Notes under the pieces: generated by a model
Database searches by the model: none
What the model was told of the DNA's origin: nothing
What the model saw: the letters and a program-made list of their open reading frames with translations, nothing else
Shown here: positions 2,820 through 64,000 of the stretch, piece by piece
Position numbering within the stretch: position 1 is the first letter of the stretch
How the letters are laid out: every line of letters starts with the position of its first letter
Position numbers and translations under genes: made by a program
DNA from: an uncultured Planctomycetia bacterium
GTDB lineage: Bacteria; Planctomycetota; Planctomycetia; Pirellulales; Thermoguttaceae
Length of the DNA stretch: 64,000 nucleotides
Assembly: GCA_963815695.1 (NCBI GenBank)
Contig: CAWFIG010000022.1
Coordinates: 96,648 to 160,647, forward strand
Direction: 5' to 3'

Positions 2820-3698
2820 CTACCGACGGCGTCGGAACCAAACGAAAGCCAGGCCGGCTGCAGCGGCCAAGAGCGCCAGCGTGCCGGGCTCGGGAACCGC
2901 GGCCGCGTTGCCGTAGACCCGCAAATCCTGGAACGAGGCGTAACTCCCAAACGAGTACCTGGAAGCTGAGGTAGTTATGGGCGAAATCAGGTCCGCTTCC
3001 GGTGTCCATCAGATTTCCATTCACATAGACTGCGGCGTCGATGGTGCCCGAACCGTTGAACGGATTGTTGTCGGTTGCGTCGGTGAACACCATCGCCAGT
3101 TCGACATAGTCGCTGTAGCCGCCGCTCCAGTCTAATGTGCTGAACCACGCGGCCGTGCCGTCCGAGGCAAAGGAGGACGCGGCAAGGCCGGTCGCGACGT
3201 GGTGCCGTCAAAGGCATTCAAATAGAAACCGGGAACTGCAAACCAGTTGGCGTCGAGATAGGTATCGCCGATGTCGGAATAGGCGGAACCAGATTGCCCC
3301 GCGCCAATTCCGGCATATCCGCCGCGAGGATTGACTTTGACGCATACCGTCAAGCCGCCGATGGCGAGATCGTTATTGAAGTCTTTCGTCAGGCCCAAGC
3401 GGGCAGTAATGGCCCCGGCGCCGCCATCGGACAGATCCAACTTCTGGTTTGGGCCATCGATATCCATTAACCCTACCTAGTTGGCCTGATCGTATGTCAC
3501 TTGTCCCGCCAGCGGGCCAAAGACACGGCTGGGCGCGTTGATGCCGTAGTTGACGTCGCCGTTCCACGTATCGCCGTAGTTGTACGTGTCCTCGAACAGC
3601 AGGGACCCGACCGGTGTGAAGGCGGCCAACGCGGGGCCTGCCAGCATGGCGAACGCCGCCATCGCCAGCAAGGCCTCTAAGACATGGAACTTCTTCAT
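2820..3698 (-). pseudogene. PEP-CTERM sorting-domain protein, disrupted (in-frame TAG plus frameshifts)
   Basis: Stitched from ORFs 3477..3698 (signal peptide MKKFHVLEALLAMAAFAMLAGPALA), 3132..3467 and 2674..3093. The TAG at 3477-3479 is in frame with the next fragment. Manual translation of 2820-2900 gives AVPEPGTLALLAAAAGLAFVWFRRRR-stop, a PEP-CTERM motif. Confidence 0.55.
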
Positions 3699-4141
3699 AA
3701 GCTAGCTCCTCTTCAGAAGGTGAACAGAAAAGAACAGAAAAACGGTGAAACAACTTGACACAAGAGCACTAATCAGCATCTGGGTTGCGGGATGTCGGCA
3801 AAAACCAGTGTTTCCGACGTGCGCGAGGCAGCAAGAATACTCCGGTAATCACGGAAGCCGGTGACGCGAGGCCTGCGACAATTGTCGCCGTCACCAGACA
3901 AGAAAAAAGCGTCTTCACAGCCATCCCCCCCCAGTTGATTCAGCCTCTACTAATGCTGTCGTTCAGGCCAACAAGTTCGATTGTAGTCTCACCCATTGCA
4001 CGTTGTGCGCAATAATGTCCCATTTTTGCGGCAAAAAGCGAGAGCCTCCATTTACGTGAACGCTTCAAGCGTGCAATAATATCCCGTCCTTGCGACACAG
4101 ACCCAGACGTCCTCCGTTTGCCCAAATAGCTGGAGCACGCG

Positions 4142-5296
4142 ATGAAAACGTTTCGCCGAGTATTTGTGCTCGTTGAGACGAGCAGCGGCTACAGTCGCGG
4201 AATCCTCGAAGGAATCGGCCAGTATAGCCACGAGCATCAGGAGTGGTCGATCCTCTTCGAGGAACGCGGCTTGGAGGAGCTTCCGCCGCGATGGCTGAAA
4301 TCATGGCACGGCGACGGGATTATTGCCCGTACGGCAAACCGCAACATTCGTCGGCGACTGGACAAAGTTCACGTGCCGCGAGTGGAATTGCTCGGTTTGC
4401 AGGAAGATGAGCCGGCCAAAGTGCATGGCGACAATCGGGCCGCGGGCCGTATGGCGGCAGTACATCTGGTGGAATGCGGGCTGCGGAATTTTGCATTCTT
4501 CGCGGGGGGCGAGCCGTGGTGGATCGCCAACTGTCGCGAGGCATTCTGCCAAGAGTTGGCGGGACACGGCTTTTCGTGTGACACTTATCGGCCGCCGGCG
4601 AAGGATACCCGGATATTGCCACGCTGGCACGAAAGTCAGGAAAAGAGTCTGACGCTTTGGCTGCTGTCGCTGCCGCAACCGTGCGGCGTATTCTGCGCTA
4701 CCGATGCCAGGATCGTGCTCGAGTTCTGCCGGCGACTGGGCATTTCCGTGCCGGAACGCATGGCCGTCCTCGGCGAAGACGAAGATCCGGTGGTTTGCTG
4801 CATCAGCAGCCCCCCCCTATCCGCGATAGATTTCGGCAGCAAGCAGATCGGATATCGAGCGGCGGCGCTTCTCGACCGGATGATGGCCGGGGCGGCGGCG
4901 CCGAAAACGGTCGAATGGATCCCTCCCCTGCGAGTCGTGCCTCGCCAATCGACGGATATCGTTGCGGTGGAAGACGACGAGATGGCACGGGCCCTTCGCT
5001 TCATTCGCCAACATGCGTGCAGCGGGATCGACGTGGACGACGTCGCCACGGCAGCCTGCATTTCGAGGCGAGCGCTCGAACGTCGTTTTCGCGCACTCTT
5101 CGACCGAACGCCGAAGTCGGAAATTCTCCGGGTGCAACTGGATCACGCCAGAATGCTCTTGTCCACAACACTGCTTTCCGTTGAAGCGGTCGCTCGAAAA
5201 AGCGGCTTTCCTGTGTTCCGACATTTTGCGGAAGTGTTCCGACGTGAAACAGGAACGACGCCGCGTGCCTACCGCAGGTCGCAGCCAACGGAATAG
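4142..5296 (+). CDS. XylR-like AraC-family transcriptional regulator (sugar-binding-like domain + AraC HTH)
   Basis: Intact 384-aa ORF. The N-terminal part resembles a periplasmic-binding-protein/LacI fold (VFVLVETSSGYSRGILEGI). The C-terminal part has an AraC-type HTH (ISRRALERRFRALFDRTPKSEILRVQLDHARMLL, GFPVFRHFAEVFRRETGTTPRAYR). Confidence 0.8.
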   Translation: MKTFRRVFVLVETSSGYSRGILEGIGQYSHEHQEWSILFEERGLEELPPRWLKSWHGDGIIARTANRNIRRRLDKVHVPRVELLGLQEDEPAKVHGDNRAAGRMAAVHLVECGLRNFAFFAGGEPWWIANCREAFCQELAGHGFSCDTYRPPAKDTRILPRWHESQEKSLTLWLLSLPQPCGVFCATDARIVLEFCRRLGISVPERMAVLGEDEDPVVCCISSPPLSAIDFGSKQIGYRAAALLDRMMAGAAAPKTVEWIPPLRVVPRQSTDIVAVEDDEMARALRFIRQHACSGIDVDDVATAACISRRALERRFRALFDRTPKSEILRVQLDHARMLLSTTLLSVEAVARKSGFPVFRHFAEVFRRETGTTPRAYRRSQPTE

Positions 5297-7228: not shown

Positions 7229-8340
7229 TCATCGCTCATCCCTTTCCGCCGCCAGCCGGCTCGCCACGCGCAGGGCCTCGATCATGCTGCCGGTCTCGGC
7301 CTGACGCCGCCAGGCGATGTCGAAGGCCGTGCCGTGGGCGACGCTGGTGCGGATGATCGGCAGGCCCAGCGTGACGTTCACCGCCCGGTGCATTCCCAGC
7401 AGCTTCAGGGCGATGTGGCCCTGGTCGTGATACATGGCCACCACGGCGTCGAATCGGCCGTCGCGGGCGCGGACCATCAGCGTGTCGGTGGGCAGCGGCC
7501 CTTCGAGCCGCAGCCCCTCGGCCAGCCCGCGCTCGACGGCCGGGCGAATGATCCGCACGCTCCTCGTCGCCGAACAGCCCGCCCTCGCCGCCGTGCGGAT
7601 TCAGCGAGCAGACGCCGATCCGCGGGCGGAGCGAAAAGGGGTCGGTTCCAATTTGTCGGAACGGCGCCGAGGGTGCTTGGCAGGAATTGGACCTGGCCCT
7701 TTTCGGCCGCATCAGCCGCGACATGAATCGGTCGGCCAGCCGGGCCTTGGCCAGGATGGCCTCCTCGGTCAATTCGTCGAACACGTTCCGCAGCGCCGTG
7801 TGCAGCGTCACGTGGACCACGGCCAGCCCGGCCGGCGAGGCAGGTCCTCGTTCGGGCCCAGGTAGAGCATCATCGCGTAATCGTCGACGCCGCAGACGTG
7901 GGCCAACAGTTCGGTGTGGCCGGGATAATCGTGGCCGGCCCGGTGCAGGGCCTCCTTTTGCAGCGGCGCGGTGGTGATGGCGTCGACCCGGCCGTCCAGC
8001 GCCAGGCGGATGGCCGTCACCACGGCGTCGTAGGCCGCCTGGCCCGCCCGGGCGTCGAGCGTGCCGGGCGGCCACGGCCAGCACGTCGTCCGAGCCGCAG
8101 GGGATGCAGGGGATCACGTCGGCGCGACGGCTGGGCCTGCTCGGGCGACTCGATCTCGACCACCTCGACGCCGGTCTGCCAAAGACGGACGGCCCGGCGG
8201 AGGATCTCCGGATGGCCCACCACCAGCGGCCGGCAGCATTCGTGGACGACGGTCTCGGTCCATGCCCCGACGATGATCTCCGGCCCGACGCCGGCCGGGT
8301 CGCCCATCGTCACGGCAATCAGCGGTTTAGCGTTCTGCAC
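7229..8340 (-). CDS. pdxA: 4-hydroxythreonine-4-phosphate dehydrogenase, several apparent frameshifts
   Basis: Stitched from ORFs 8017..8406 (KPLIAVTMGDPAGVGPEII), 7808..8023 (AITTAPLQKEALHRAGHDYPGHTELLA) and 7229..7558 (AMYHDQGHIALKLLG...NVTLGLPIIRTSVAHGTAFDIA). GTG at 8340 taken as start. Confidence 0.85.
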
Positions 8341-27678: not shown

Positions 27679-27783
27679 GGGGAGGCGATAGTAGGTAGTG
27701 GGTCAGTGGATCAGACGCCGCTTGCGGTTTCGCAGTGCTGATCGTATGCCGCCGAGCCGATTTCTGTCAAAGGGGGGGCCTGA

Positions 27784-30936: not shown

Positions 30937-33263
30937 ATGGCAGGTTCGGGATTTGCGATTTCCAATCTTCCATTGCTGGTCTTCTGTTTGTCCTTTTCGC
31001 CGCGGTTTTCCCCGCGGCCGCTTCCGCACAGGAGATCAAGCCGCCGAAGATCGTCGGCGTGCGGGTTGGAATCGCCGATCGCTACAAGGCGGGATTGTGG
31101 ACGCAGGTGGAAGTGACGCTGTTGGGCGGGAGCGAAATGCTTACCGGCGAGGTGTCGGTGATTGTGCCCGACGGCGACGGCGTGCCCGGCTGCGTCTCGA
31201 CGCCGCCGAGCAGGCCGTGCCAGGTCTTGCCGGGCCAGACGACGCCCGTTCGGCTGGTCACCCGCTTCGGCCGCGTCGACGGCGACCTGCAGGCCGAGTT
31301 CCGCGTCGGCGGCGCGTCTGGTCGCCGAGCCGAACGTTCGAGGCCGGCGTGCAGGCCGACGGCGAGCACTTCGCCGAGGCGATCGAACTGCAGGAAGCTC
31401 GATCGTTTCGCGTGGGCGACTCGTCGCTGGACGTGGCAGGGCGAGGCGCAAGCCCGACGGTCTCGATCCGGAAGCCAAGCCGGTCGTCGCTCAGCGTGAC
31501 GACATCGAGCGGCTGCCGAGCCAGTGGTGCGCCTACGAAGGCGTCGATGCGGTCATCCTTTCGACCAGCCGGCCGGAAATCTACCGCAAGCTGGCCGCCA
31601 ACAATGCACGGGTGCAGGCGCTCGACCAATGGGTGCGCATGGGGGGCGGTTGGTGTTGTGCGTCGGTTCGCAGGGCGACGAAATCCTGGCCGAGGGCTCG
31701 CCGCTGGGCGAGTTCGCCCCCGGCCGGCTCGAGAAGATCGTTACACTGCGCCAAACCGGGGCGATCGAGACCTACTGCGGAGGCCGCTCGTCGATCGCCC
31801 AGACGGCCGGACGGCAAGCCGAAGCTGCAGGTCTCGCGGCTGGCCGACGTCCAGGGCGTCGTCGAAGCCGACGAGCGCGGCGCTGCCGCTGGTGATTCGC
31901 ACCGCGCGGGCTTCGGCCAGGTGATCTTCGTCGCCGTCGACCTCGACCAATCGCCGCTGAACAAATGGCCGGACCGGCCGCTGCTGGTGGCCCAGCTGCT
32001 CGACCTGCCGACCGTGCGCAGCGACGAGTCGGCAGCGGAGAACGCGGCCATGATGCACTACGGCTACAGCGATCTGGCCGGCCAGTTGCGCAGCGGCCTC
32101 GGACCGATTCACGCGGCGTCCAGCTCGTGCCGTTCTGGCTCGTGGCGGGCCTGATCGTCGGATACATCCTCCTGATCGGGCCGGGCGACTATTTCTTCCT
32201 TCGCAAAGTCGTCGGCCGCATGGAATGGACGTGGCTGACGTTTCCGCTGATCGTCGTGCTGGTGTGCGTCGGCCGCCTACGTTCTGGCCTATCGGCTCAA
32301 AGGCAATCAGCTTCGCGTGAACCAGATCGATCTGGTCGACGTGGACGCGGCGTCGGGCGAGATGCGCGGCGACGACCTGGATGAACGTTTTCAGCCCGCG
32401 GATGGAATCGTTCGATTTCACCGTCGAGCCGCGCGAGGCCGACGGCCAGCCGTCGCCGAACGCCCGCGTGTGGATGGCCTGGCTGGGCTTGCCGGGCGGC
32501 GGGCTGGGCGGCATGAATCCGCACGCCAACGGCCCGTGCTCTGGACCGAGCAATTCCGCTACGCGACCGAACTCGACGCGTTGTACGGCGTGCCGATCCA
32601 GGTCTGGTCGACCAAGAGCCTCACCGCCCGCTGGGAGCGCCCAGCCGCGGCTTGTCCCGCGGCCGATTTGACCGAGAGCCGATCGCCTTCTTACCGGCTC
32701 GATCACCAACACGCTTCCCTTTCCGCTCGCGCGACTGCGTATTGCTGCACGGCGGATCGGCCTATGAGCTCGGCACGCTCTCGCCCGGCGAGTCGGTTCG
32801 CTTGGGTCCGACGGCCAAGCGGAGTGGAACTGAAGACGTTCTTGACCGCGAAAGGTCATCGGCGAAGGCGACGACGCTGTCGCAGCAGGCCACGCCCTAT
32901 GACCAGTCGAGCATGAATCTCGGCTACATCCTGCGGGCGATGATGTTTTACGAGGCGGCCGGCGGGCGCCGCTACACCGGCCTGTTGGAACAGCTACCAG
33001 GAGTTCGTCGATCTGAGCGACTTGCTGAAGACCGGCCGGGCGATCCTGTTCGCCGAGGCGCCCATCGCCCGCCGCCGAAGGACACCAAGGCGCCGACGCT
33101 GCTGCGGCAGACGGCCAAGCCGCTGGCCGGCCCGCAAGATCGGCACGAAACGATCTATCGCTTCATTTTTCCCGTAAAAACCGGACAATTGGCCGAGCGA
33201 GTAACAACGCGCGGCATGAACCGTCCCGCGCCATACTGCCCACTGCCCACTACGCCATCATGA
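30937..33263 (+). CDS. large hypothetical secreted/membrane protein, many apparent frameshifts; both ends approximate
   Basis: Signal-like LLFVLFAAVFPAAASAQE. Fragments 30888..31499, 31162..32154 (AYEGVDAVILSTSRPEIYRKLAANNARVQALDQWVRMGG), 31965..32384 (TM helices LVPFWLVAGLIVGYILLIGPGDYFFLRKVVGRMEWTWLTFPLIVVLV), 32317..32916 and 32652..33263. No family recognised. Confidence 0.45.
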
Positions 33264-34673: not shown

Positions 34674-34707
34674 CGGTTAATCCCTAATCCCTAATCCCTA
34701 ATCCCTC

Positions 34708-34708
<1 letters not shown>
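34674..34708. repeat. heptamer tandem array (TCCCTAA)x3 plus 2 degenerate units
   Basis: cggttaa tccctaa tccctaa tccctaa tccctct. The last unit overlaps the pgi stop codon (34708-34710). Confidence 0.9.
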
Positions 34709-36120
<1,412 letters not shown>

Positions 36121-36148
36121 GGGAGTGGTCAGTGGTTAGGGGTTAGGA
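36121..36148. repeat. heptamer tandem array (GGGAGTG GTCAGTG GTTAGGG GTTAGGA)
   Basis: Begins at the nucleotide after the pgi start codon. The last two units are the inverted form of the TCCCTAA array at the other end of pgi. Confidence 0.85.
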
Positions 36149-36431
36149 TCAGTTTAGCCGCCGCGTCTCGCGAGCGAGCCAGGGTCTCGCTGTTGACGGG
36201 TGGCACGTCACACTGCCGTCCCGACATGCAGGAAACGCTCGAATCGCCAGTGCAACTGCATCCCAACGTGGTCGAGAATCGTTCAGCTCGCCGCGTCCAC
36301 ACGGCGAACGCTGCGAAGGACGTTTCCTTCGCGGAATCGCGACTGCTCGCCTTCCCCCTTCCGCCTTCCCCCTTCTTTTGTTACCGTGAAACATTCTATC
36401 GACCCGAGCAGGAAAATAAAGGAGCCCCATC

Positions 36432-38965: not shown

Positions 38966-39236
38966 GCTCCACCGGCCCCGTGCCGGTGGACAGACGATTG
39001 GCCACTACCGAGGGCTTGCACAACTCCACGTCGCTCCACCGGCCCTGTGCCGGTGGGCGAAACGATTGGCCGCTTCCACGCCCGGCCCGCACAATCATTC
39101 GCTCCACCGGCGCGGGGCCGGTGGGGGCGATGACGCGAGACCTTTGCGGCTGTAGTGGCCAATCATTCGCTCCGCCGACGCGGTGTCGGCGGGGGCGGAG
39201 CGTTGCAACGAAAACCGTATCATTGGCCCGCTCCCC
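38966..39236. repeat. tandem array of four 67-68-bp units, each with an 8-bp-stem hairpin
   Basis: Units start at 38966, 39033, 39101 and 39169. Each begins GCTCCACCGGC-N5-GCCGGTGG. Unit 4 has CCGCCGAC-gcggt-GTCGGCGG, i.e. two compensatory base-pair changes. Confidence 0.85.
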
Positions 39237-40621: not shown

Positions 40622-41851
40622 CTATGGTACGAGTCGGGCGTCGAGCCAGTCGGCGTGGTCGAGGACGTCGGCGCGGTCGGCGTAATCGACTAGTAGTTCT
40701 AGCTTCTTCGCGCCGCGAACATCGACGGAAACCGGCAGCGGGGCGTCGCCGCCGCGGACGATTGGACTGGTGAAACGTTCCTGGCCATCGACCAGGACGC
40801 GGAAGATCACGCTGCCGCGGCCTGGCGGTCGAGTCGTCGATGCCGACCTTGGCCTCGAAACGATGGAAACGACTTGGAAATTTCGGAGACTTGGGGATCC
40901 GCAGCCTCTGACCCCTGACCCCTGACCCCTGACCCCTCAGCTGCCCTTACCCCCTGCCCCTCTCCCACCGGCGGAAGAGGGGAGATTGTGTAGACCAGCC
41001 GGGCGGCGCTGTGAACGCCGAGGCCTTTCAGATAAAGCTGGCCGCTCGCAGCGGAGCATGCCGCCGGTGACGTTGCGGTCGCGGCGATACGGCCACGGCA
41101 GGCGAGGAACGGCGTTTGGCGATACTCGGCCGGCTTGAGGTCGGAGAGATAGACGGCGCGGCCGCCAGCGGTTGAAGGAAGACGAGCGGCGAGCGCTTGG
41201 CCCGTAAGCGTTTGGCCGGCGGCCGTGATTTTCAGCGAATCGCCTTCGAGCAACAATTCCGTGGCCAACAGCCGGCTGCCGTCGCTGAAGCCTGCCCAGA
41301 CTCGCAGCGAGTCGGGCTTGACGGCCAGTTTTCGCCGCAAGGCGGGGTTGAAGAGGATGGCCGTGATGCGGTCGGTCTTGACTTCGGACCGGCGCCGGCG
41401 TCGGTCTTCAACGTGACGGCGTCGTCGGCGATGCCCTCGAAGAGGCCGGCAAGCTCGTCGCCGTTGTCCAACAGCAGGCGGTCGGAGTCTCCGGCGGCGT
41501 TGGAGAGGCGATCGAGCAATAAGTCGTGCTGCTGGCGGTCGGACAGGCGCGAAGGACGATGCCGGCCAGCACGTCGAGCGGCAGCTTCAGCGTTCCGAAC
41601 AGATCGGAATCGGCGGTGAGCCGGTCCTTGTCGGCGGCGACCACCTCGGCCGTCAAGCAGGCTGCCGTCGGCCAAGACGAGCCCCCCTGCCCTGCCCTGC
41701 TCCGGGCATTGTCCCCAGCGGACCAGATCGGCCGCCGGCATGGTGCGTCGCTCGTTGCCGACGGCGAAGGTGAGTTGCCAGTTGGGCGTCGACGGCGACC
41801 AGCTTCGCCGCGGAACGGCTCGCCGTCGACGGGAACGGCCACGGGGCGCAT
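40622..41851 (-). CDS. NPCBM/NEW2-domain protein, frameshifted and carrying a repeat insertion
   Basis: C-terminal ORF 40622..40810 (IFRVLVDGQERFTSPIVRGGDAPLPVSVDVRGAKKLELLVDYADRADVLDHADWLDARLV). Upstream fragments 40807..41340 (YLKGLGVHSAARLVYT), 41232..41906 and 41408..42025. Start MRPVAVPVDGEPF at 41851. Confidence 0.6.
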
Positions 41852-41871: not shown

Positions 41872-41962
41872 AATGCAAAATGCAAATTGAAAAATGCAAA
41901 ATGCAAATCTGAAATTCGAAATTGGAGATTTCAAATTCGAAATTGAAGATTTGAGATTGAAG
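41872..41962. repeat. AT-rich heptamer tandem array, 13 units in perfect register
   Basis: aatgcaa aatgcaa attgaaa aatgcaa aatgcaa atctgaa attcgaa attggag atttcaa attcgaa attgaag atttgag attgaag (91 nt = 13 x 7). Confidence 0.95.
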
Positions 41963-41993: not shown

Positions 41994-42035
41994 GCCCTCT
42001 CCCCTCTCCCCTCTCCCCTCTCCACTACCCTACCG
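41994..42035. repeat. C-rich heptamer array (GCCCTCT, CCCCTCT x3, CCACTAC, CCTACCG)
   Basis: Counted directly. Overlaps the stop codon (42030-42032) of the prenyltransferase-repeat gene. Confidence 0.9.
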
Positions 42036-47319: not shown

Positions 47320-49722
47320 CTATACCATTCCCCGGCGTTTTCTCGTAATATCCATTCGGCGATCAGCAGCAGCAGGAACAGCGCCAGCACCGGCCAGCGG
47401 TTCCAGAGCGGACGCGGCGGCAGCGATTCGATGGGCACCTGGCGGCCGGGCGGCAGGTCGTCGCAGCAAGCGGTCGGCCGTGTCGAACGTGTAGAATCGG
47501 CCGCCGGAGATTTCGGCGGCCGCGCGCATGGCGGCGGCGTCCATGCGCACTTGGGCGAATTCGCCGGGCGGCGGAACCACCGTGAAATCGACCGCCGGCG
47601 ACTGGCCCTGGCAGCGTCGGGCGCGGCGATCCAGGCGTGATAGCTGCCCGTGGCGGGCCGATCGAGCAGGCCCTCGAAGACGCCGCGGGCCGGCGGCCGC
47701 GCGGTGCAGCGACATCCGCCGCGTCTTTCGCCCGGACTGCTCGACCACGACCGTCACGCCGTCGTCTTCGGCCGGGGCCAGCCGCTCGTCGGCGAACCGC
47801 ACCCGCAGCCGCACCGACTCGCCCTGGGCGATATTCGCGGCGGTCGGTCGTGAGAGTGGCCGCGCGGCCGGCGTCGGCCAGCTTCGAGCGGCAGAGGTAG
47901 CGGATCGTCTGAATCCAGTAGCGGGCGAAATAGACGTCGCCGACGCGATAACGCCATCGCCAGGTCTCGTCGGTGGCGTGGAACAGCACCTTGCCGGCGC
48001 CGACGTACTGGAAGCAGGATCACCGGCAAGCGGCGGCCGTCGGGGCCGGTTCGCGTGGGGTGCTCGGCCAGCACGCGCACGCCCGGCTTCAACTCGGGAA
48101 TCTCCAGCAGCCAGTACAGCGGCGGCAGATTCTTCCAGATCCGCTCGCGTCTCCTCCGGCGTGTCGCCCAGTTGCATGGAGGGGCTGGCCAGGCCGAGAT
48201 CGGTCGGCTGCACGACGAAACCTTCGGTGAGCGTGTCCGGTCGGATAGCCGGACGCGATCGACCGAGAACGGCAGCAGCCGGGCCAGCGGCGTGTCGCGG
48301 AAGGCCGCCGGCATGTACGACGGGCCGGCGATCACGACCAACGAGCCCCCCTTGGCCGGCTGATCGACGAAATCGGCCAGGTTCTGCATCGCCGCCGAGT
48401 CCAGCAGAGCCGGATTCACGTCGCCGAGGATCACGACGTCGTAGGCGAAAAGGTCTTCGCGCCGCAACGGGAAGGCCCGCAACGACGAGGCGTCCTGCTC
48501 GGCGTTCTCCGGATCGGCGTCTTGCAGCACGGTGTCGAGCGAGATCGTCTCATCGCGGCGGAGCATGTTCCGCAGGTAGCGGAACTCGAAACTCGGATAA
48601 GCTTGAACCAGCAGCACGCGGATTTTCTCCTTGCGGACCTGGACAGTGCGCGTCTGCCGGTTGTTTTCGGTCAGCGACTCGCCGGCCAGCGGCTGGGCCT
48701 CGACGACGTACTCGAACTGGCCGACCTTGGTGGGCCGGTATTGCAGGCGGACCCGCAACGGCCGGTCGTCGGTCGGGGCGGTCACCTCGGTCTTCGCCAG
48801 GATGTTCTCCGGCGTGGTGGGCTTGTCCTTTTCGCGGAGTACGATCGAGACCTTTCGCCCCTCGAAACCCGCGGCCGTCAGCTTGCACTCGAAATTCACC
48901 ACGTCATCGACGAATACGACGTCATCGACCATCAGATCGGAGAGCTTCAGATCGCGGACGGGCCGATCGCTGCCGAGGCCGACGAAATAGAGCGGCACGC
49001 CACGCCGCTGTGCGTGCTCGGCCGCGTCGGCCAGCGTTGGGCCGTCGGTGTTGATGCCGTCGCTGAGCACGACAACGGCGGCGGGGGCGGCGCCGCGCAA
49101 GTCGTCGAGCGCCGCACGCACACCGGCGCCCAGCCGGGTAGTCTTCCCCTTGGGGGCCAACGATCGCAGCTCCGCGACGATGCCCGGCACGTCCTGGCGC
49201 GGGCTGGCGCGAACCCGTGACAAAATAGACCCGCAACTTGTGACCGGCGGCGATTCCGCGCAAGAGGCTGCCGTCGCGCTCCGCCGTCAACGTTCGCAGA
49301 AGATTCCAGCGGCTCAAATCGGTCGCGCCGAGGCCGCTGCGGCGCAACCGCGCGGCCATCGCCTTGCGAGGCTTCTCGGCGTAGTGATCCACGATCGTCA
49401 TGCTCTGCGAGTCGTCGATCAGCACGGCCGCGTAGGGCAGTCCGGTGCGTTTCAACGAAAGCGTAACCTGGGCGATCATCAGCAGCAGCAGCCCGAGGAG
49501 CGCAAGCCGCAGGGTCGCCAGCATGATCCGATAGCGCCGCGTCGCACGGGTGCCTTCCCGCCAGTAGATCATCGCCACGAAGGCCACCGCCAGCGCCACC
49601 AGCAGCAGTGTCACCCAGGGCGGCCAGGGCCACGCCGAGTCGATCGACCAGACCGTACCCTCTCCGCTCCCGGTGCTGATACCGAGCAGGCGTTCGACCC
49701 AGGGTGGCATGACGTGGTTCAT
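47320..49722 (-). CDS. von Willebrand factor A-domain membrane protein, multiple apparent frameshifts
   Basis: ORF 48922..49722 ([24 protein letters not shown]...[11 protein letters not shown]). ORF 47754..49223 ([33 protein letters not shown]...[11 protein letters not shown]). ORFs 47363..47989 / 47320..48213. C-terminal [21 protein letters not shown]. Confidence 0.7.
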
Positions 49723-49723
49723 A

Positions 49724-49828
49724 GGTTAGTGGGCAGTCGGCAGTCGGCAGTGGGCAGTGGGCAGTCGGCGGTCGGCAGTCGGCAGTCGGCAGTCGGCAGT
49801 GGGTAGTGGATAGTGGGTAGTGGGTAGT
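49724..49828. repeat. heptamer tandem array, 15 units in perfect register (consensus SGGYAGT)
   Basis: ggttagt gggcagt cggcagt cggcagt gggcagt gggcagt cggcggt cggcagt x4 gggtagt ggatagt gggtagt gggtagt (105 nt). Starts 2 nt upstream of the VWA gene ATG (49720-49722). Confidence 0.95.
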
Positions 49829-49865
49829 GCGAAACCGCAAGCGGTTGTGAAGATATGACGAAGTT

Positions 49866-49935
49866 CATCTCTCATCCCTCATCCCTAATCTCTCATCCCT
49901 CATCCCTAATCTCTCATCCCTCATCCTCTCCCCCC
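49866..49935. repeat. C-rich heptamer array, ~10 units with a 21-nt super-period (CATCCCT CATCCCT AATCTCT)
   Basis: Counted directly. Overlaps the 3' end and stop region of the BatA-like gene. Confidence 0.95.
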
Positions 49936-52085
49936 AGTTTCCATCCCAGGAAGACCTCCGCCAGCGCAGGCCGAGCGCCGCGTAGAGGAGATCGACGTGC
50001 AGCCCTTGCTGGCCGTGGGCCGTCCCGACGCCGGCGCCTTTGATGTCTTGCCAGGAAGTCTGATAGACGAACGGAATGTCCGGCCACGTCTGGTTGCGCA
50101 GGTCGTCCGCATCGATTTGTGCAAGGTCGCTCTCCGTCGTATCGACGTTGACCGCGAACGTCTGGCGGCGGTTGGCCGGCGGGCCGAACTGCACCGTGTA
50201 GATGCCGCTTTGCAGCGTGTCGGCGTACGTCAGGGCGAAGCGGTCGCCGGCGGGCTGCAACTGCGCGGGCCGCTTGCGGCCGTCGGGCGATTGCACGCTC
50301 GCCGACGATATGCCGCCCGACGACGTCAAGGCGTCGAACGTATCGCCCACCAGGACGTTTCGCTGTTGGAGTTGCCCGGCCGCACACCAGGCGACGATCT
50401 CCTGCACCAGCGGGACGAAGCTCGGCCAGAGCGGCATGGCGGTCCACGACGGCTCGGCCGAGGTGCCCACCAGCACGACCCGGCCGCGATGGACCGATTG
50501 CTCGATCACCAGCGGATCGCCGTTGCCCAGCGCCAGCACGGTCGTCGCGTGCGACTTCTTCGACGGCGTCAGTTGGTAATGCTTGAAGACCGGCGTGGTC
50601 AGCAGGCTGGTTTGTCCGCGGCCGCGAAACGCCTCGAGAATCGGATGCCGATAGCCGAGCGGATCGAGCCGGAACTGCGGCTGATCGACGACGTTGCCGA
50701 TGCGGGCGGGCAGAATGTGCGGCCCCCCTGCCCTGCCCTCCCCGGCGACGCCCAATTCGCGATTGTAGCGGTCGGCCAACACCTGATCGCCGAGGAAGAA
50801 GACCACGCTGCCGCCGCCCTGCAAATAGGCATCCAGGGCGCGGGCCTCGCTGGCGGTGAACTGGGCGACGTTGCAAAGGAACAGGCAGTCGTAGCGTTGC
50901 CAGGTTGCGCTCCAACAGCGCGCTTCTCCGTGGCCACCTCGGCTTGCAGCGGCGACTGGTCCGACCTTTCGCCTTGCGGCGTCGAGCGCCACGGCGAGAT
51001 AATCGGCGGCGCCGCGGAACGAACCGCCCGAGGGCCGCCCGTCGATGCACAATGCGCGGATCGCTTGCCGCAGCGGTCAGGGCCAGATAGCGGTGATTGT
51101 CGATCTCCAGGGCGTCGCCGGGGGCGCGGGCCTCGATGGCGTGATCGCCGGGCGACATCGAAACGATACGAGAACTCCGACCGCGCCGCTGCCGTCCGGT
51201 GACAATTCCGCTTGGGTCTGCGCGATCCTTCGCCCATCGACGAACAGTTCCACAAGTTGGCGATTGCGCGGCGGCGGCGACCGAAATGCTGCAGACGAAC
51301 GTGCAGGGGCGTGTCGCGGCCGACGGTGACCAGCGAATCGGTCGTGCGGAGATCGGTAATCGCCAGATTCTCCGCCGACGGCTGGCCCAGGTCGATCACG
51401 AACAGGTCGGCCAGTTGGGTCAGTTGGCTGGTCTGTTCGAGGAACTGGGCGCGGGCCGTCTGCGAGAATTGCGGCGCCCATGTGACTGCGCTGCAAGTCG
51501 GTGAGGAAATAGACCTCATGGCGGTCGAGCCGGGGGTTCTCGCCGGCGACCTTCTCGATCAGTTGCCGAATCGCGGGAATCGCCGCCGGCAGATCGGCCA
51601 CGGTATGCGGAAGCTGCAAGTTGTCGATCTCCTCGCAAAATGGCAGCGGACTCCAACGCCGCCGTGCCGACGACCACTCGCGGCGTCGACGACATCAGCA
51701 CCAGCGTGAAGGCGTCGCCCTGCGGGCTGTCGCTGACGATCTGCCGGGCAAGCTCCTTGGCGTGGTCGAATCGCGTCTTGTCGGCCGGCTTGTAGGCCAT
51801 CGAGTAGGAGCCGTCGAAAACCAGCACGCGGTGGACGTGGCTGCCGGGCGTGAAGGCCATGCCCGCCCGCTCGATGTACGGCTCGGCCACCGCCAGCACC
51901 ACTAGCACGACCAGCAGCGTGCGAACGGCCAGCAGCAGCCATTGCTCGAACAGCAGCCGCCGCGTCTGCCGCCGCACGGCCGCCAGCAGATACTCCATCG
52001 CCGCGAACGACATTTCCCGGTACTTCCGCCGGCTCCACAGATGGATCAGGATCGGCGCAGCCGCCGCCCCCAGCCAGCCGAGCAT
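49914..52085 (-). CDS. BatA-type protein (N-terminal double-TM domain), multiple apparent frameshifts
   Basis: ORF 51516..52085: MLGWLGAAAAPILIHLWSRRKYREMSFAAMEYLL...LLLAVRTLLVVLVVLAVAEP...VLVFDGSYSM. Further fragments 51077..51619, 50599..51519 and 49865..51052. Restored end AEVFLGWKLGGEDEG-stop (49914). Confidence 0.7.
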
Positions 52086-52134
52086 CGGCAGGCTGACCCA
52101 TCCAAAGGCGAGAAGTGGCGGCAGCGAAGGGCAT

Positions 52135-52175
52135 GGTGGATAGTGGGTAGTGGGTAGTGGGTGTGGTTAGTGGGT
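52135..52175. repeat. heptamer array (AGTGGGT)x4-5
   Basis: ggtggat agtgggt agtgggt agtgggt gtggtt agtgggt. Lies ~50 nt upstream of the BatA-like start. Confidence 0.9.
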
Positions 52176-52214
52176 CACTCGCACGATTCTTGTGTCTTTG
52201 AGTGAATCGTGGAC

Positions 52215-52572
52215 AGTCCACTCAGCAATCGGCCAACCTTAGCGATTTGTTCAAGCAAGGTGCATGCTGGCGACCGACGTTGGTGACGTATCTTCGAGCC
52301 GCTCGGCTAATTCATGACATCTGCTGTTTCAGCTTCCTTGACCGAGCCCGTGGGCGATGGACAGGAATATGCAGGAAATCGCGTGTCGTGTTGCGTCCCT
52401 GCTCCTCGGCGATATTGGACGGAACGGATCATTGCGGCCAACGTCGAAGCTGAGTCAGTGAGTGAATCGATCTTCTTCTCGCGGAAATCGATCCTTGTTG
52501 TCCGATAGACGATTCCACAAGGTCCATCGCCTTCTGCCAGACGACAAGATCCTGATAGCTTTGAACTGCCAT
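52215..52572 (-). CDS. four-helix-bundle protein (23S rRNA intervening-sequence protein family), apparent frameshifts; 3' end approximate
   Basis: Manual translation from ATG 52572: MAVQSYQDLVVWQKAMDLVESVYRTT..FREKKIDSLT.QLRR. Other frames give SVPSNIAEEQGRNTTRDFLH. Visibly lower GC than the flanks. Confidence 0.55.
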
Positions 52573-52610
52573 GTTCAACTCTACGATCGAAACAAGACCA
52601 GATTCTCATT

Positions 52611-52645
52611 CTACCCTACTACCCACTACTTCCACTATCCTCTCG
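52611..52645. repeat. heptamer array, inverted form of the 52135 array (ACTACCC-type units)
   Basis: ctaccct actaccc actactt ccactat cc. Overlaps the DUF58 stop codon (52635-52637). Confidence 0.8.
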
Positions 52646-53528
52646 ACGCCAAGTAACTCGCCAACGTCACTTCCAACGGCCGATCGGTTCGCATCGGCAC
52701 GTAGTCGATCGCGTGGGCACGGCAGCCGGCTTGCAGCTTGCGCACGTAGCGGCCGAACTCGGCTAGATAGGCTTTGCGAATCGCCCGCGGCTCGACCAGC
52801 ACGTCGGGCAGACTCTCCAGGCCGCGGAAGAGCGTGATCCGCTCGAACGGGAAATCGACCTCGGCCGGATCGAGCACGTGCATCAGGACGACTTCGTGCC
52901 GGCGATGACGCAGGTGCTTCAGCCCTGTCATCAGCGAATCGACGTCGTCGAACAGGTCGCTCAGCACGATCACGATTCCGCGCCGCTTGATCCGCTCGGC
53001 CAAGTCGTGGAAGATCGGGCCGATCGACGGTCTTTCGCTCGGCCGACGTGGCTTCCATGACGTGCAGGATCTCTTTCAGATGCGACGGATTGCTGCTGGC
53101 GCGGACCAGCGAGCGGATTTCGCTGTCGAACGCGACCAGGCCGACGCTGTCTTGCTGGTGCAGCACCAGATACGCCAGCGCCGCGGCCGCACGCCGGGCG
53201 TAATCGAGCTTCGACATGGCCGCGGCGTCGCTCGGTACCGCATGCTCTCGCTCGTGTCCAACAGCAGGTGGCAGACCAGGTTCGTCTCTTCCTCGAACTG
53301 CTTCAGGTAGTATTTGTCGGTCCGTCCGAACACTTTCCAGTCGAGATACCGCAGGTCGTCGCCGGGCGAGTAGTCGCGGTGCTCGGCGAACTCGATCGAG
53401 AAGCCGTGAAAGGGGCTGCGGTGGACGCCCGCCGTGTAGCCCTCGACCGTCCGCCGCGCGCGGAGCGGCAGCGCTTGCAGCCGGGCAAGCATTTGCGGAT
53501 CGAGGAGTTGCTGGGAGTGGTCGGACAT
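52635..53528 (-). CDS. DUF58-domain protein, apparent frameshifts
   Basis: ORF 53076..53528 ([50 protein letters not shown]), a middle fragment in the frame of 52606..53865 ([20 protein letters not shown]) and ORF 52635..53003 ([12 protein letters not shown]...). Confidence 0.8.
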
Positions 53529-53570
53529 CGGCGGATCGCTGCACGGTGAAGCCGCAAGCGGCTAGGGGGT

Positions 53571-54613
<1,043 letters not shown>

Positions 54614-54726
54614 GATGGTTCATTCGAGTGGGTCGTTGACGGAACGGGAATGGATGGGAATGCGAAAGCATTGCGACTTGCATGCGTGTTGGCACAACCT
54701 CTTGTCCCTTCGACATTGCTCGATTT

Positions 54727-56928
54727 TCATTTGCCGCGTTTCTCCTGCCATGCGGTTTTCCGCCGGTCGTTCCCAGCGCGATCAACTCGTCGTCGGTGGC
54801 GATCAGCAGTTTTCCATCGGCGACCAGCAGGTTGCCGCCGGAGGCGCCGATGGCGGCGAGATCGACGACCCTGCCGAGGCCGGGCGGTCTGCTGGTCGAA
54901 GATATACAATTTGTCGCGGGTGGACCAGAGGACGTCTTGGCCGGCGAGAATTCCGCGGCCGTAGCCGGGCCGCTCGGGACCGTCGGGCCAAACGTGCTTC
55001 ACCCGGCCGCGGTCCTCTTCCTTCAGGCTGATCCAGTAGAGCCGCGCTCCGCCGGCGATCAGCCAGTCGCCCGTCGTCGCCCAGCAGTCCGGCGGCGTCC
55101 TCCACCTCAGTGCCGGTTTGCCAAAGAATCTGGCCGGTGGCGGCGTCGAAGGCGAAGATGCGCGGGCTGTCCGGCGGGGCGACCAGCAGCGTGCCGCGAT
55201 CCAACAGGCAGGGATTCAGCTCGCGCCGCCAGTGCGGCGCGAGCTTGGCCAGATCGCCGCGCAACGCGCGGGGATACAGGCTGACCCAGAGCATCCGGCC
55301 GTCGTCGGCCCGCAGGGCCGCCACCGCGCCGAGATTGGTGTTGTAGTAGAGCGTGCCGGAGGAGAGCGTCAGCAGGTTGTGCGTTTGCTCGGGCAGCATG
55401 CCGCGGGCGGGCGTCTCGGCGCCGCAGATGAATCGCCGCCAGCGCAAGCCGGCCGGTGTCGGCGTCGAAACAGGCCACGAACGCCTGCGGCCGGATGTCG
55501 TGCCGGCGCATCGCCACATAGACGCCGCGCTCGTCGGCCAGCGGCGCGCCCTCGAAGGCCCAGCCCTCTTCCGGCGCGATCTTCCAGAGCAGCCGCCCCT
55601 CGGCCGCCAGGTCGAGGCAGACCAAATAGCCGGCCGCGGTCCGGTGCCGCAGCCGCGGGGCTGGGCGGTCACGGTCGAGCCCATGCGGGCGAAGAGCTCT
55701 GTCGCGAAAAACGGTCATCGTAAATCGCGGCGACCCGAAGCTTTCGGTCGGAATGGCCGACTGACCTCTCGCGGCACGGCCATTTCGCTTTCGATAAATC
55801 GCGGCCGTTCGTCCCCACGCCGGCTGGCCGCGTGTCGCATCGCACGGCCAGGACTTGCCGATCGTTGTTGACCAAACGCCAGCCGACCGATCAGAAGCGG
55901 GAAGAAACTCAATGGCTCGCGGGGATCCTCGCCGATAGTAGCTTCGCGCCCATCGGGCCGCTTGGGCGAGCCGTCGGTGCCGGAGCGGGATTCGCCACGC
56001 CACCGCCCCGACATCGACCAGCGACGCGGCGGTCTTGTTGCGCTGCGGATTGCCGGCGAAGGTCAGCCAGTCGGCGTCGAGCGGCGCGGCGGGCCACGAG
56101 CGCGCTTTCGGCCAGCAGCGATTCGAGCAGTTCGACGTATCGGCCCTTCGCGATCGCCGAGCCGGCCCTGCGCGTCGGGATGCAATTTGGCGAAGGCGGC
56201 CAACTCGCCGCGGGCTCGGTCGGTCGCCCCTTCGAGAATTGACACCAGCACGAGCCTCGCCCGAACCGCCGCCAGATCGAGATTGGTGTCGGGATAGCTG
56301 GGCCAGGAATCGGCGGCGACGTTTTGTTCGGGCGGCGATGAAACGGCTGCCGTGTTCTTGTACTGTGCACCGGCACGATCCGCTCCCAATTCCACCGCGC
56401 CGCGGCATAGTCGCCCGATTCCAGCGCCATATCGCCCAAGGCCATCAGGGCATCGTCGCCAAAGCTGCTGGCGAACGCCTGATCGACGATGTTCTGCAGC
56501 GGCTTGCGGTCGCGACTCGGCGATGCCCTGCTCGTACCATTTCTCGGCGACGGGATCGACGCGGCTGCGGTAGAGCTTCAACGCCTCGGGCGGCAGGGAG
56601 GCCAGTCGCAATTGGCACCACTCGCGCAGGCCGATGAAGCGATGCGGGGCGACGCCGAGCAGCTTGCCTTCGGACGTCTCCGAGAGTTGGCGGAGGATTT
56701 CGACGGCTTCGTCCCACTGACGGTCGGCCAGCAGCGGATTGACGCGATCCAATTGAGCCCGGACGGCCGTATCTACCTGGTCGAGTTGGACGGCGTCGGA
56801 GAGCTCGAATTGGCTGCTCGGGAACATGCCGCCCCACTGGGCCGGAGCGACTGCGGCCAGCCGACCGCTATGATTGCAGCGGCGGCGACGGTAGCGGCAA
56901 GCCACGATGTTTTTCGACCAGCCATCAT
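54727..56928 (-). CDS. secreted protein with TPR-like N-terminal region and PQQ-like beta-propeller repeats, many apparent frameshifts
   Basis: Start after GGAGG: MMAGRKTSWLAATVAAAAIIAVG (56928). Fragments 56063..56995, 55909..56445 (ALGDMALESGDYAAARWNWERI), 55107..56408 (YLVCLDLAAEGRLLWKI...GVYVAMRR) and 54803..55684 (LYYNTNLGAVAALRADDGRMLWV...IFAFDAATGQILWQ). Confidence 0.6.
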
Positions 56929-59222: not shown

Positions 59223-59351
59223 CACCCAGTAGGTCCCGCCTGCCGGGCGGGACTTGTGTGCGTACCGTCTCGAGAAGTCCCGCCTGCCGGGCGGGACTTG
59301 CGTGCATACCGTTTCGAGAAGTCCCGCCCGGCAGGCGGGACCTACTGGGTG
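59223..59351. repeat. REP-like palindrome cluster (three GTCCCGCC-N5-GGCGGGAC hairpins inside a larger palindrome)
   Basis: Hairpins at 59233-59253, 59277-59297 and 59321-59341 (the third is the exact inverted form). Two ~44-bp direct repeats. Outer arms cacccagtag / ctactgggtg. Confidence 0.9.
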
Positions 59352-63655: not shown

Positions 63656-64000
63656 AGGCACAACGGGGGGAGATAAAGCCGCTCGCGGCTTCGCAATGTC
63701 TTCATTTGAAATTTCAGTTTTCCGACATTCCCCCATTCTGCCCCATCGGGCGACTTTCCAACCAGCCCTGGATGATGAAAAAGCGGGAGGTTACAATGGA
63801 GGTTATGGCCGGAGGCGGCGAAAAAGGGGACAGGTCCATTTTTGCCGGAACGGCCCGGAGGGTGCTTCGCACAAATCGGCCTGTCCCCTTTTCCGGCCGG
63901 CAATCCTGACAGTCACGCCTGCAACTGCCCCGATGATAGCCTCACGCCCTCCGTGGGCTAGGCGGCGGCAAGCTTAGAAGGAGCACTGCCCTGAGCAAGA

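Follow-up and report, generated by a model that had tools for sequence, protein, structure and literature searches.

A probable decayed S23p-type element with inverted heptamer-array ends between the DUF58 and BatA genes of a planctomycete operon

Introduction

The S23p or 23S intervening-sequence (23S-IVS) family of four-helix-bundle (4HB) proteins has been known since the early 1990s, is very abundant, with genomes of several phyla carrying many copies, and includes members with solved structures; to our knowledge, no function has been assigned to it. Several bacterial groups also have arrays of intergenic heptamers, a feature that has long lacked an explanation; among them are the cyanobacterial short tandemly repeated repetitive (STRR) heptamers such as CCCCAGT and CAACAGT, reportedly described by Mazel et al. 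in 1990. Here we describe a locus that combines a gene of this family with such arrays. It occupies positions 52135-52645 of the window, by which we mean the whole 64-kb stretch of DNA analysed (contig CAWFIG010000022.1 of an uncultured Planctomycetia bacterium), and lies inside a MoxR-DUF58-BatA operon. The locus is a decayed S23p element with inverted ends, an element of a known kind in an unusual setting. The link between 4HB genes and inverted heptamer arms across the family is more interesting than the locus itself: in the two distant subfamilies that were sampled, about 85-90% of the genes lie between mutually complementary arms, usually heptamer arrays.

The closest described systems are the IVSs of 23S rRNA, which in Coxiella and Leptospira contain a gene of the S23p family (Warrier et al. 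2016, PMC4990558). The Coxiella burnetii element is 428 nt long, carries an S23p open reading frame (ORF) and is closed by a 28-bp stem of terminal inverted repeats, found experimentally to be cut by RNase III; tandem heptameric repeats, varying in number by strain, precede the ORF, which is under reductive evolution (PMC4990558). Genes of the family have also been reported as insertions in cas operons (PMC3936711). Among heptamer repeats, Rehm et al. (2015) described GGGNATC units after stop codons and before start codons in Xanthomonas and Nostoc, with 70-75 convergent pairs in Xanthomonas, and found no connection of these repeats to mobile elements or four-helix-bundle genes (PMC4692102). 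In Beggiatoaceae, Cyanobacteria and Bacteroidetes, MacGregor (2015) described direct TAACTGA repeats that lie upstream of ORFs and end just before the start codons (PMC4679880). In a literature search that left many subscription journals uncovered, so that a prior description is possible, we found no statement linking 4HB genes to inverted heptamer arms; for heptamer repeats combined with the 4HB family, only the Coxiella IVS paper turned up.

Results

The interval 52135-52645 is probably a decayed, horizontally spread and apparently selfish cassette of the 23S-IVS type, with heptamer arrays as its inverted ends, residing in an mRNA operon. All genes of this operon lie on the minus strand, in the order MoxR, DUF58, cassette region, a gene with BatA N-terminal (BatA-N) and VWA domains, and further VWA-type genes. 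Window positions 49865-54613 are laid out as follows, the arms being named 5' and 3' in operon sense.

53303-54613, minus strand: MoxR gene.
52635-53528, minus strand: DUF58 gene, the upstream neighbour (ORFs; PF01882 matches on both halves; orthologs), with two frameshifts in the assembly.
52611-52645, minus strand: 5' arm of the cassette, a G-rich heptamer array (sequence, inverted match and fold; homologous array at 8058-8090 of the related locus L002).
52573-52610, minus strand: spacer that separates the 5' arm from the ATG at the head of the 4HB gene.
52175-52572, minus strand: relic of a 4HB gene of the PF05635/TIGR02436 (S23p) family, with its ATG at 52572 (three-frame translation; profile matches of the stitched protein).
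52135-52175, minus strand: 3' arm of the cassette, a C-rich array (Tandem Repeats Finder (TRF), sequence and RNA fold; homologous expanded array at 8510-8645 of L002).
49865-52134, minus strand: BatA N-terminal and VWA gene, the downstream neighbour (PF07584 and PF13519 matches), frameshifted at about 52123 and beyond.

The stop codon of DUF58 (TAG, 52635-52637) lies inside the right array, and the left array runs directly up to the true BatA start, which alignment with the starts of the related loci L002 and L005 places at ATG 52134-52132. Measured from this stop to this start, the two genes are about 500 nt apart, less than the roughly 550 nt of the original prediction. The last reading frame of the relic stops at TGA 52177-52175, within the first unit of the 3' arm.

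TRF delimits the left array at 52136-52175, with a period of 7, 5.9 copies and 85% matches; it is of the (AGTGGGT)n type, with the sequence GGTGGATAGTGGGTAGTGGGTAGTGGGTGTGGTTAGTGGGT. In operon sense, the 3' arm formed by this array reads ACCCACT AACCACA CCCACTA CCCACTA CCCACTA TCCACC, up to the BatA start codon. The right array reads GGATAGT GGAAGTA GTGGGTA GTAGGGTAG on the minus strand; it is the more degenerate of the two, and TRF makes no call there. An inverted match of 15 nt at 93% joins 52615-52629 to 52147-52161, and together with the TRF call on the left it bears out the pair of arrays first noticed from the sequence alone at 52135-52175 and 52611-52645. Allowing up to two mismatches, the 14-mer TAGTGGGTAGTGGG matches 13 times in the window, against 0.05 matches expected from shuffles. 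The left array contains four GGG tracts on the plus strand, and the right arm only two on the operon strand.

The interior of the cassette differs in composition from its surroundings. Its GC content (52176-52610) is 0.517, against a window mean of 0.638 (standard deviation 0.044), 0.644 in DUF58 and 0.671 in BatA, and just 0.3% of 435-nt windows are as low; the dip suspected from the letters thus held on computation. Codon usage, which the original prediction had proposed to profile, points the same way: GC at third codon positions (GC3) is 0.55 in the intact 4HB gene of L002 and 0.77-0.80 in its neighbours. In 72 of 76 loci of the family-wide survey presented below, the 4HB gene has a lower GC than its surroundings. 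Elsewhere in the window, 435-nt stretches at or below 0.52 are confined to 1-500 and about 3500-4000.

Stitched together, the translation of the relic matches PF05635 (23S_rRNA_IVP) at 9e-28 with 97 bits (cutoff 33.8) and TIGR02436 at 1.8e-27 with 95.7 bits (cutoff 24). The small 4HB gene that had been read from the sequence belongs to the family named for it, but looks like a relic and not like a working gene. Three-frame translation finds pieces of the protein spread over all three frames; about ten frame changes are needed to read through, one in-frame stop (TGA) intervenes, and the uninterrupted ORF of some 110-135 amino acids (aa) typical of the family is absent. The L002 ortholog is intact at 122 aa and matches PDB 2gsc (XCC0516) at 2.4e-29. 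Aligned with L002, the window gene has 17 gap openings in 352 nt (4.8 per 100), 16 of them insertions in the window, against 0.2-1.0 per 100 nt in the flanking genes, and it mismatches at 19% of positions, against 12-15% in the flanks. Because the excess of indels is local, amounting to 5- to 25-fold, the window copy is probably a real pseudogene, the alternative being local mis-polishing. By tblastn, the cassette gene is the sole 4HB match in the 64-kb window.

Single-base indels also affect the surrounding genes. Between 47000 and 57000 they break the MoxR, DUF58, BatA, VWA and PQQ-repeat genes, which are intact in L002; examples lie at 53656, 53028, 53233, 52123, 51634 and 51484. The majority insert a single nucleotide, and their density is about 0.1-1 per 100 nt. 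The window looks like an insertion-biased, poorly polished long-read assembly, and ORF calls anywhere in it are therefore unreliable.

MoxR homologs place the window among Pirellulales-type planctomycete metagenome genomes, and the DUF58-BatA junction is variously occupied in these relatives (percentages give MoxR identity to the window).

L002, 95%: 4HB gene intact at 122 aa, its arms homologous and the 3' one expanded to about nine copies of a 14-mer.
L091, 96%: a GC hairpin with an array of another kind, (CAATCAA CAATCTT)n; beyond these the contig ends.
L001, 95%: an unrelated 142-aa membrane-protein gene, no arrays.
L003/L004, 91%: a gene of the L001 type plus a second gene, flanked by (GGGATTA)2 and by (CCCTAAT) in about 20 copies.
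L005, 90%: 94-nt spacer with only (CTACTAT CCACTAA CCACTAT CCACC) ahead of the ATG.
L008, 89%: 143-nt spacer, empty of cargo.
L094, 87%: 72-nt spacer, empty of cargo.
L095, 87%: 205-nt spacer with arrays.
L010, 87%: 23-nt spacer, no arrays.

The 4HB gene is missing from the junction in L001, L003/L004, L005-L007, L008, L010, L094 and L095, and no start of such a gene occurs in L091 within the 70 nt that separate the DUF58 stop from the contig end. Since the junctions of relatives are empty or differently filled, the likely ground state is one in which DUF58 and BatA are adjacent, the 4HB gene having been inserted between them. The empty sites sought by the original prediction are thus present, in spacers of 23 nt (L010) to 143 nt (L008), and the same gene at the same position without arrays was not seen in any of the relatives compared. 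Together with L002, the GC3 values and the inverted arms found across phyla, these junctions uphold the earlier suggestion of an inserted cassette whose ends are the arrays. An assembly chimera was rejected, since L002, a contig from an independent metagenome, carries the same DUF58-4HB-BatA arrangement with its arms. This shared position, with homologous arrays in one independent relative at 95% MoxR identity, is what would be expected if the 4HB gene were an ancestral member of the operon, its low GC and its arrays being incidental. Such an origin is very improbable: the gene is missing from many relatives' junctions, the GC3 of the L002 copy stands at 0.55 against about 0.78 in its neighbours, the closest protein relatives are found in other phyla, and the window copy has decayed while its neighbours are conserved. 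We reject it on the empty DUF58-BatA sites.

The other cargo at this junction consists of a conserved gene for a predicted membrane protein of about 145 aa (L001 2772-3200; L003 10006-10443) and an additional 167-aa gene (L003 10494-10997). A Pfam search assigned the cargo proteins of L001 and L003 to no family.

The association of 4HB genes with heptamer arrays extends well beyond the operon. With the L002 protein as query and one genome per species, we collected 80 loci at 55-69% identity from Acidobacteriota, Planctomycetota, Chloroflexota, Chlorobium, Desulfobaccales, Chromatiaceae, Verrucomicrobiota, Spirochaetes and others. Up to 300 nt from the 4HB gene, arrays of period 7 have a density of 1.82 per kb, against 0.104 per kb elsewhere in the loci (17-fold), and tandem periods other than 7 are essentially absent. 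At least one array was called in 54 of the 80 loci, and arrays on both sides in 26. Flank complementarity was measured regardless of array calling, between the 200 nt upstream and the 200 nt downstream, at an ungapped complement score of at least 14; this scoring replaced RNA duplex energies of the flanks, which gave a significant result (p = 2.5e-9) on a noisy baseline. By this measure, 64 of 76 loci have flanks that complement each other; cross-locus pairings reach the score in 10.5% of cases and shifted controls in 0%. Median arm length is 31 nt; the upstream arm stops about 42 nt short of the ATG (median over 66 other loci), and the downstream arm begins about 25 nt past the stop. In L011, a locus from Chloroflexota, the TAG stop of the upstream gene likewise falls within the first unit of the 5' array.

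The array unit differs by locus (GGTCAGT, GGGCAGT, TCTCAGT, GGGTAGT and others), with a YAGT core that is kept; the RGT rotation is found in 79 of 86 arrays, against 21% by chance. GGGTAGT, the window unit, is found again at L011 and L013, which carry the closest protein relatives and belong to other phyla. Because unit similarity tracks the similarity of the 4HB proteins (Mantel p ~0.012), it suggests that gene and arms travel together. A distant subfamily of Bacteroidetes type, made up of metagenomic relatives of the Bacteroides thetaiotaomicron protein PDB 2rld, repeats the pattern: 2.19 against 0.205 arrays per kb (11-fold), inverted flanks in 53 of 59 loci with 0% in shifted controls, and the units TGACAAT and TGACAGT. 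The B. thetaiotaomicron gene itself lies between (AATTGAC)n and (GTCAATT)n arms. By these sequence comparisons, the arrays are linked to the 4HB gene family and not to the DUF58-BatA locus. Among XCC0516-like genes on viral contigs, inverted flanks were found in just 4 of 12, and the rule may fail in phage contexts. Two of these contigs, L188 and L190, have a pair of palindromic-core arrays, (GAACGTT/CAACGTT)n, upstream of the 4HB gene rather than one on each side. G-quadruplex formation was rejected as a common property of the arms, as only 6 of 46 upstream arrays contain four or more GGG tracts.

In RNA, the arms of the window cassette are predicted to pair. The minimum-free-energy fold joins 52613-52640 to 52138-52162 in a stem of about 25 bp (z = -3.3) that is broken by two small interruptions, and the fold of the L002 cassette is closed by a stem of the same arm-to-arm kind (z = -4.8). 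IVSs are marked by terminal inverted repeats that enclose an ORF and form a stem of about 20-30 bp, as the predicted window stem does, and by a sporadic, horizontally acquired distribution, as is seen here in the empty junctions, the GC3 and the relatives at 55-69% identity across phyla. They are also marked by their place in helix 25 or 45 of the 23S rRNA gene; the window cassette lies between DUF58 and BatA instead. No Rfam match at E <= 1 was found in 49500-55000, and a consensus scan of 51900-52900 found neither a sigma-70-like promoter nor an intrinsic terminator, though planctomycete promoters may differ from the consensus.

We propose that the cassette, an S23p gene between terminal inverted repeats whose upstream unit is of the NGNYAGT type and whose downstream unit is its complement, entered the short DUF58-BatA spacer in an ancestor of the window lineage. 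It would be transcribed within the operon, and its arms would then pair into the stem of about 25 bp, looping the cassette out and bringing the stop codon of DUF58 close to the start codon of BatA, since the base of the predicted stem sets the DUF58 UAG beside the BatA AUG. By analogy with the Coxiella element, the stem would most likely be a site for RNase III, which would let the element sit in transcribed DNA at low cost. We infer such processing because the stems of Coxiella and Leptospira IVSs, which carry the same gene family, are cut by this enzyme.

Heptamer arrays are frequent in the window at large, which holds about a dozen of them. G-rich units follow stop codons, in gene sense, at 34678, 40905 and 49865. 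A minus-strand ORF region at about 34720-36120 has (GGGATTA)4 after its stop (34678-34706) and CTAACCC-like units running into its start (36100-36150), which appears to be an array bracketing of an ordinary, non-cassette gene. Another gene is accompanied by three arrays with heptamer or 21-nt units: (CTGACCC)4 at 40905-40937, an AT-rich block of (AATGCAA / AAATTCG)n at 41872-41958 and (CCCTCTC)4 at 41995-42023; an AATGCAA-type inverted pair resembling the AT-rich block lies at L001 588-730. The spacer after the BatA-type gene (49724-49926) contains, in gene sense, (GGGATGA/GAGATTA)n after the stop, a GC hairpin GCGAAACCGCAAGCGGTT and a 106-nt array of ACTGCCG/ACTGCCC/ACTACCC units up to ATG 49722. 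Its two arrays are not complementary and enclose no cargo, and the last units are the same as those of the cassette 3' arm. A small hairpin motif (GAARCCGC-AA/GA-GCGGYT) recurs in intergenic spacers at 27689-27731, 49831-49846, 53548-53563 and 63677-63692 and in L091 at 4305-4325; two of its copies are directly upstream of ACT-type heptamer arrays that themselves precede start codons. If three mismatches are allowed, it has four matches against 0.9 expected, a weak excess. Longer tandem repeats occur at 59233-59341 (period 44, 2.5 copies, 90% matches, with palindromes GTCCCGCC...GGCGGGAC) and at 38966-39125 (period 68, 2.4 copies).

Discussion

Several observations weigh against an IVS-type cassette bounded by its own arms. 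Arrays of the ACT type, sharing the unit of the cassette arms, directly precede start codons with no cassette at 33235 (C-rich, ATG 33260) and, on the minus strand, at 27689 (ATG 27678) and 49724-49829 (ATG 49722), and a lone array of the cassette type persists at the BatA start of the cassette-free L005 junction. Given these, arrays also exist, or persist, independently of cassettes. Neighbours on the same strand on both sides of the 4HB gene were found in 27 of 63 loci, as judged from crude stop-to-stop ORFs in high-GC DNA. Frame-breaking 1-nt insertions run across window genes including MoxR, DUF58 and BatA, marking a noisy assembly, and part of the apparent decay of the 4HB gene could be assembly error. 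The cassette-free arrays raise the question of whether the arrays are generic intergenic heptamer repeats, acting as G-quadruplex or leader/trailer elements, and unrelated to a 4HB gene that happened to land between two of them. The dozen window arrays fit this account, with G-rich units after stops and C-rich units before the starts of ordinary genes (34678-36150, 33235, 27689), as do the C-rich arrays abutting the BatA ATG in cassette-free L005, L008 and L094; the same placement has been described for GGGNATC (PMC4692102) and, before starts, for TAACTGA (PMC4679880). We nevertheless hold generic repeats to be an improbable explanation. They would not account for the 17-fold and 11-fold enrichment of arrays beside 4HB genes in two independent surveys, for flanks that match far better within a locus than across loci, or for a heptamer unit common to the closest 4HB relatives in other phyla, and the potential to form G-quadruplexes is not general.

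A further set of adverse observations concerns the level at which the arms act. Mismatches between the arms comprise 69 G.U and 71 A.C pairs, a ratio without bias; selection on the stem in sense RNA is not supported by such equal counts. Nothing in them shows complementarity being preserved for the sake of the sense RNA, and it may stem from an origin or function at the DNA level, a process of this kind being possible because G.U is not in excess over A.C. Cargo other than a 4HB gene lies at the same junction in L003 between inverted (GGGATTA)/(TAATCCC) arrays. The ORFs and Pfam matches of the neighbourhood include no transposase in or beside the cassette, and comparison of L002, L005 and L010 reveals no recognisable target-site duplication at the arm edges relative to empty sites. 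With no transposase, target-site duplication or second copy, mobility is therefore read only from the distribution of the cassette.

The original prediction raised the possibility that the arrays are integration or recombination sites, and such an account, in which arrays resembling terminal inverted repeats (TIRs) or hairpin attachment sites allow cassettes to be captured, exchanged and lost at a cargo hot spot, draws on several of these observations. The junction is hypervariable among close relatives, holding a 4HB gene, a transmembrane-protein gene, two-gene cargo, a lone array or nothing; the L003 cargo is bracketed by a different inverted pair; the absence of G.U bias fits complementarity at the DNA level; and inverted array pairs without cargo occur at L001 588-730, L025 331-469, L030 1262-1444 and L054 5195-5259. 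These pairs may be relics of decayed cassettes, of which the window copy would be an intermediate and the lone L005 array the end state; alternatively, they are independent elements that receive cassette insertions. As an explanation of the window arrays, DNA-level sites seem unlikely to us. Neither a recombinase nor a transposase lies within the cassette or next to it, a target-site duplication is not recognisable, and the L001 cargo has no arrays at all. The closest documented function of such arms, and the sole one established experimentally, is that of an RNA stem cut by RNase III, not of a DNA recombination site (PMC4990558).

An IVS-type cassette is thus the reading we retain, and its interest lies in the rule that the survey brings out. 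The architecture of complementary arms around a 4HB gene is that of the rRNA intervening sequences excised by RNase III. Seen in the light of this rule, 4HB genes become the cassettes of a selfish, IVS-like element that is at home in mRNA operons as well, and at least some heptamer arrays may owe their origin to it. For annotation, it implies that 4HB cassettes within operons should not be read as operon members. A broader proposal, which we put forward tentatively and regard as rather doubtful, is that 4HB genes and NGNYAGT-type arrays together form one widespread, previously unrecognised class of element. In this class the pentameric protein would recognise its own arrays as RNA or single-stranded DNA, promoting spread or controlling the downstream gene, intergenic arrays elsewhere would be footprints or targets, and rRNA IVSs would be a special case. 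If that were so, the arrays of Cyanobacteria (STRR), Beggiatoaceae (TAACTGA) and Xanthomonas and the lone and paired arrays of Pirellulales would be cassette footprints or targets, and 23S rRNA IVSs would be cassettes that happened to land in rRNA.

Among known systems, miniature transposable elements with inverted repeats (MITEs) and integron cassettes resemble the window element as short promoter-less units with inverted or hairpin-forming ends, intergenic location and presence/absence polymorphism. Membership in the MITEs or other TIR transposons was rejected, as target-site duplication, adjacent transposase and further copies in the window are all lacking and the ends consist of tandem arrays, not of unique inverted repeats. 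An integron cassette was likewise rejected: the repeats stand on both sides and not at a single 3' site, there is no partner integrase or tandem cassette array, and a single cassette sits in a housekeeping-type operon, the surveyed 4HB loci also being single cassettes. The TAACTGA and STRR repeats share ACTG/CAGT-core heptamers that end at or before start codons, as do the 3' arm and the lone arrays at 27689, 33235 and 49724, and a patchy occurrence across phyla; unlike the window arrays, they have been presented as direct repeats for which a role in translation is proposed, and no flanked 4HB gene or inverted partner is reported for them. With the GGGNATC repeats (PMC4692102) the arms have in common a period of 7, about four or more units, frequent convergent inverted pairs and a copy number that varies between relatives; the unit sequence is different, and most 4HB-associated arrays cannot form G-quadruplexes.

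The IVSs of Coxiella and Leptospira are the nearest counterparts. The window element departs from that of Coxiella in lying between two protein-coding genes of an operon and not in rRNA, in having arms that are themselves NGNYAGT-type heptamer arrays (the Coxiella repeats being GACAGAT), and in a stem that is predicted, whereas RNase III cleavage is experimental in Coxiella. In other respects the elements agree: an ORF of the PF05635 family, about 120 aa long, occupies the loop of an element of some 430-500 nt; terminal inverted repeats form a predicted stem that is about 25-28 bp long and contains a bulge or mismatch; and heptameric repeats of variable copy number upstream accompany a decaying ORF and a sporadic distribution consistent with horizontal spread.

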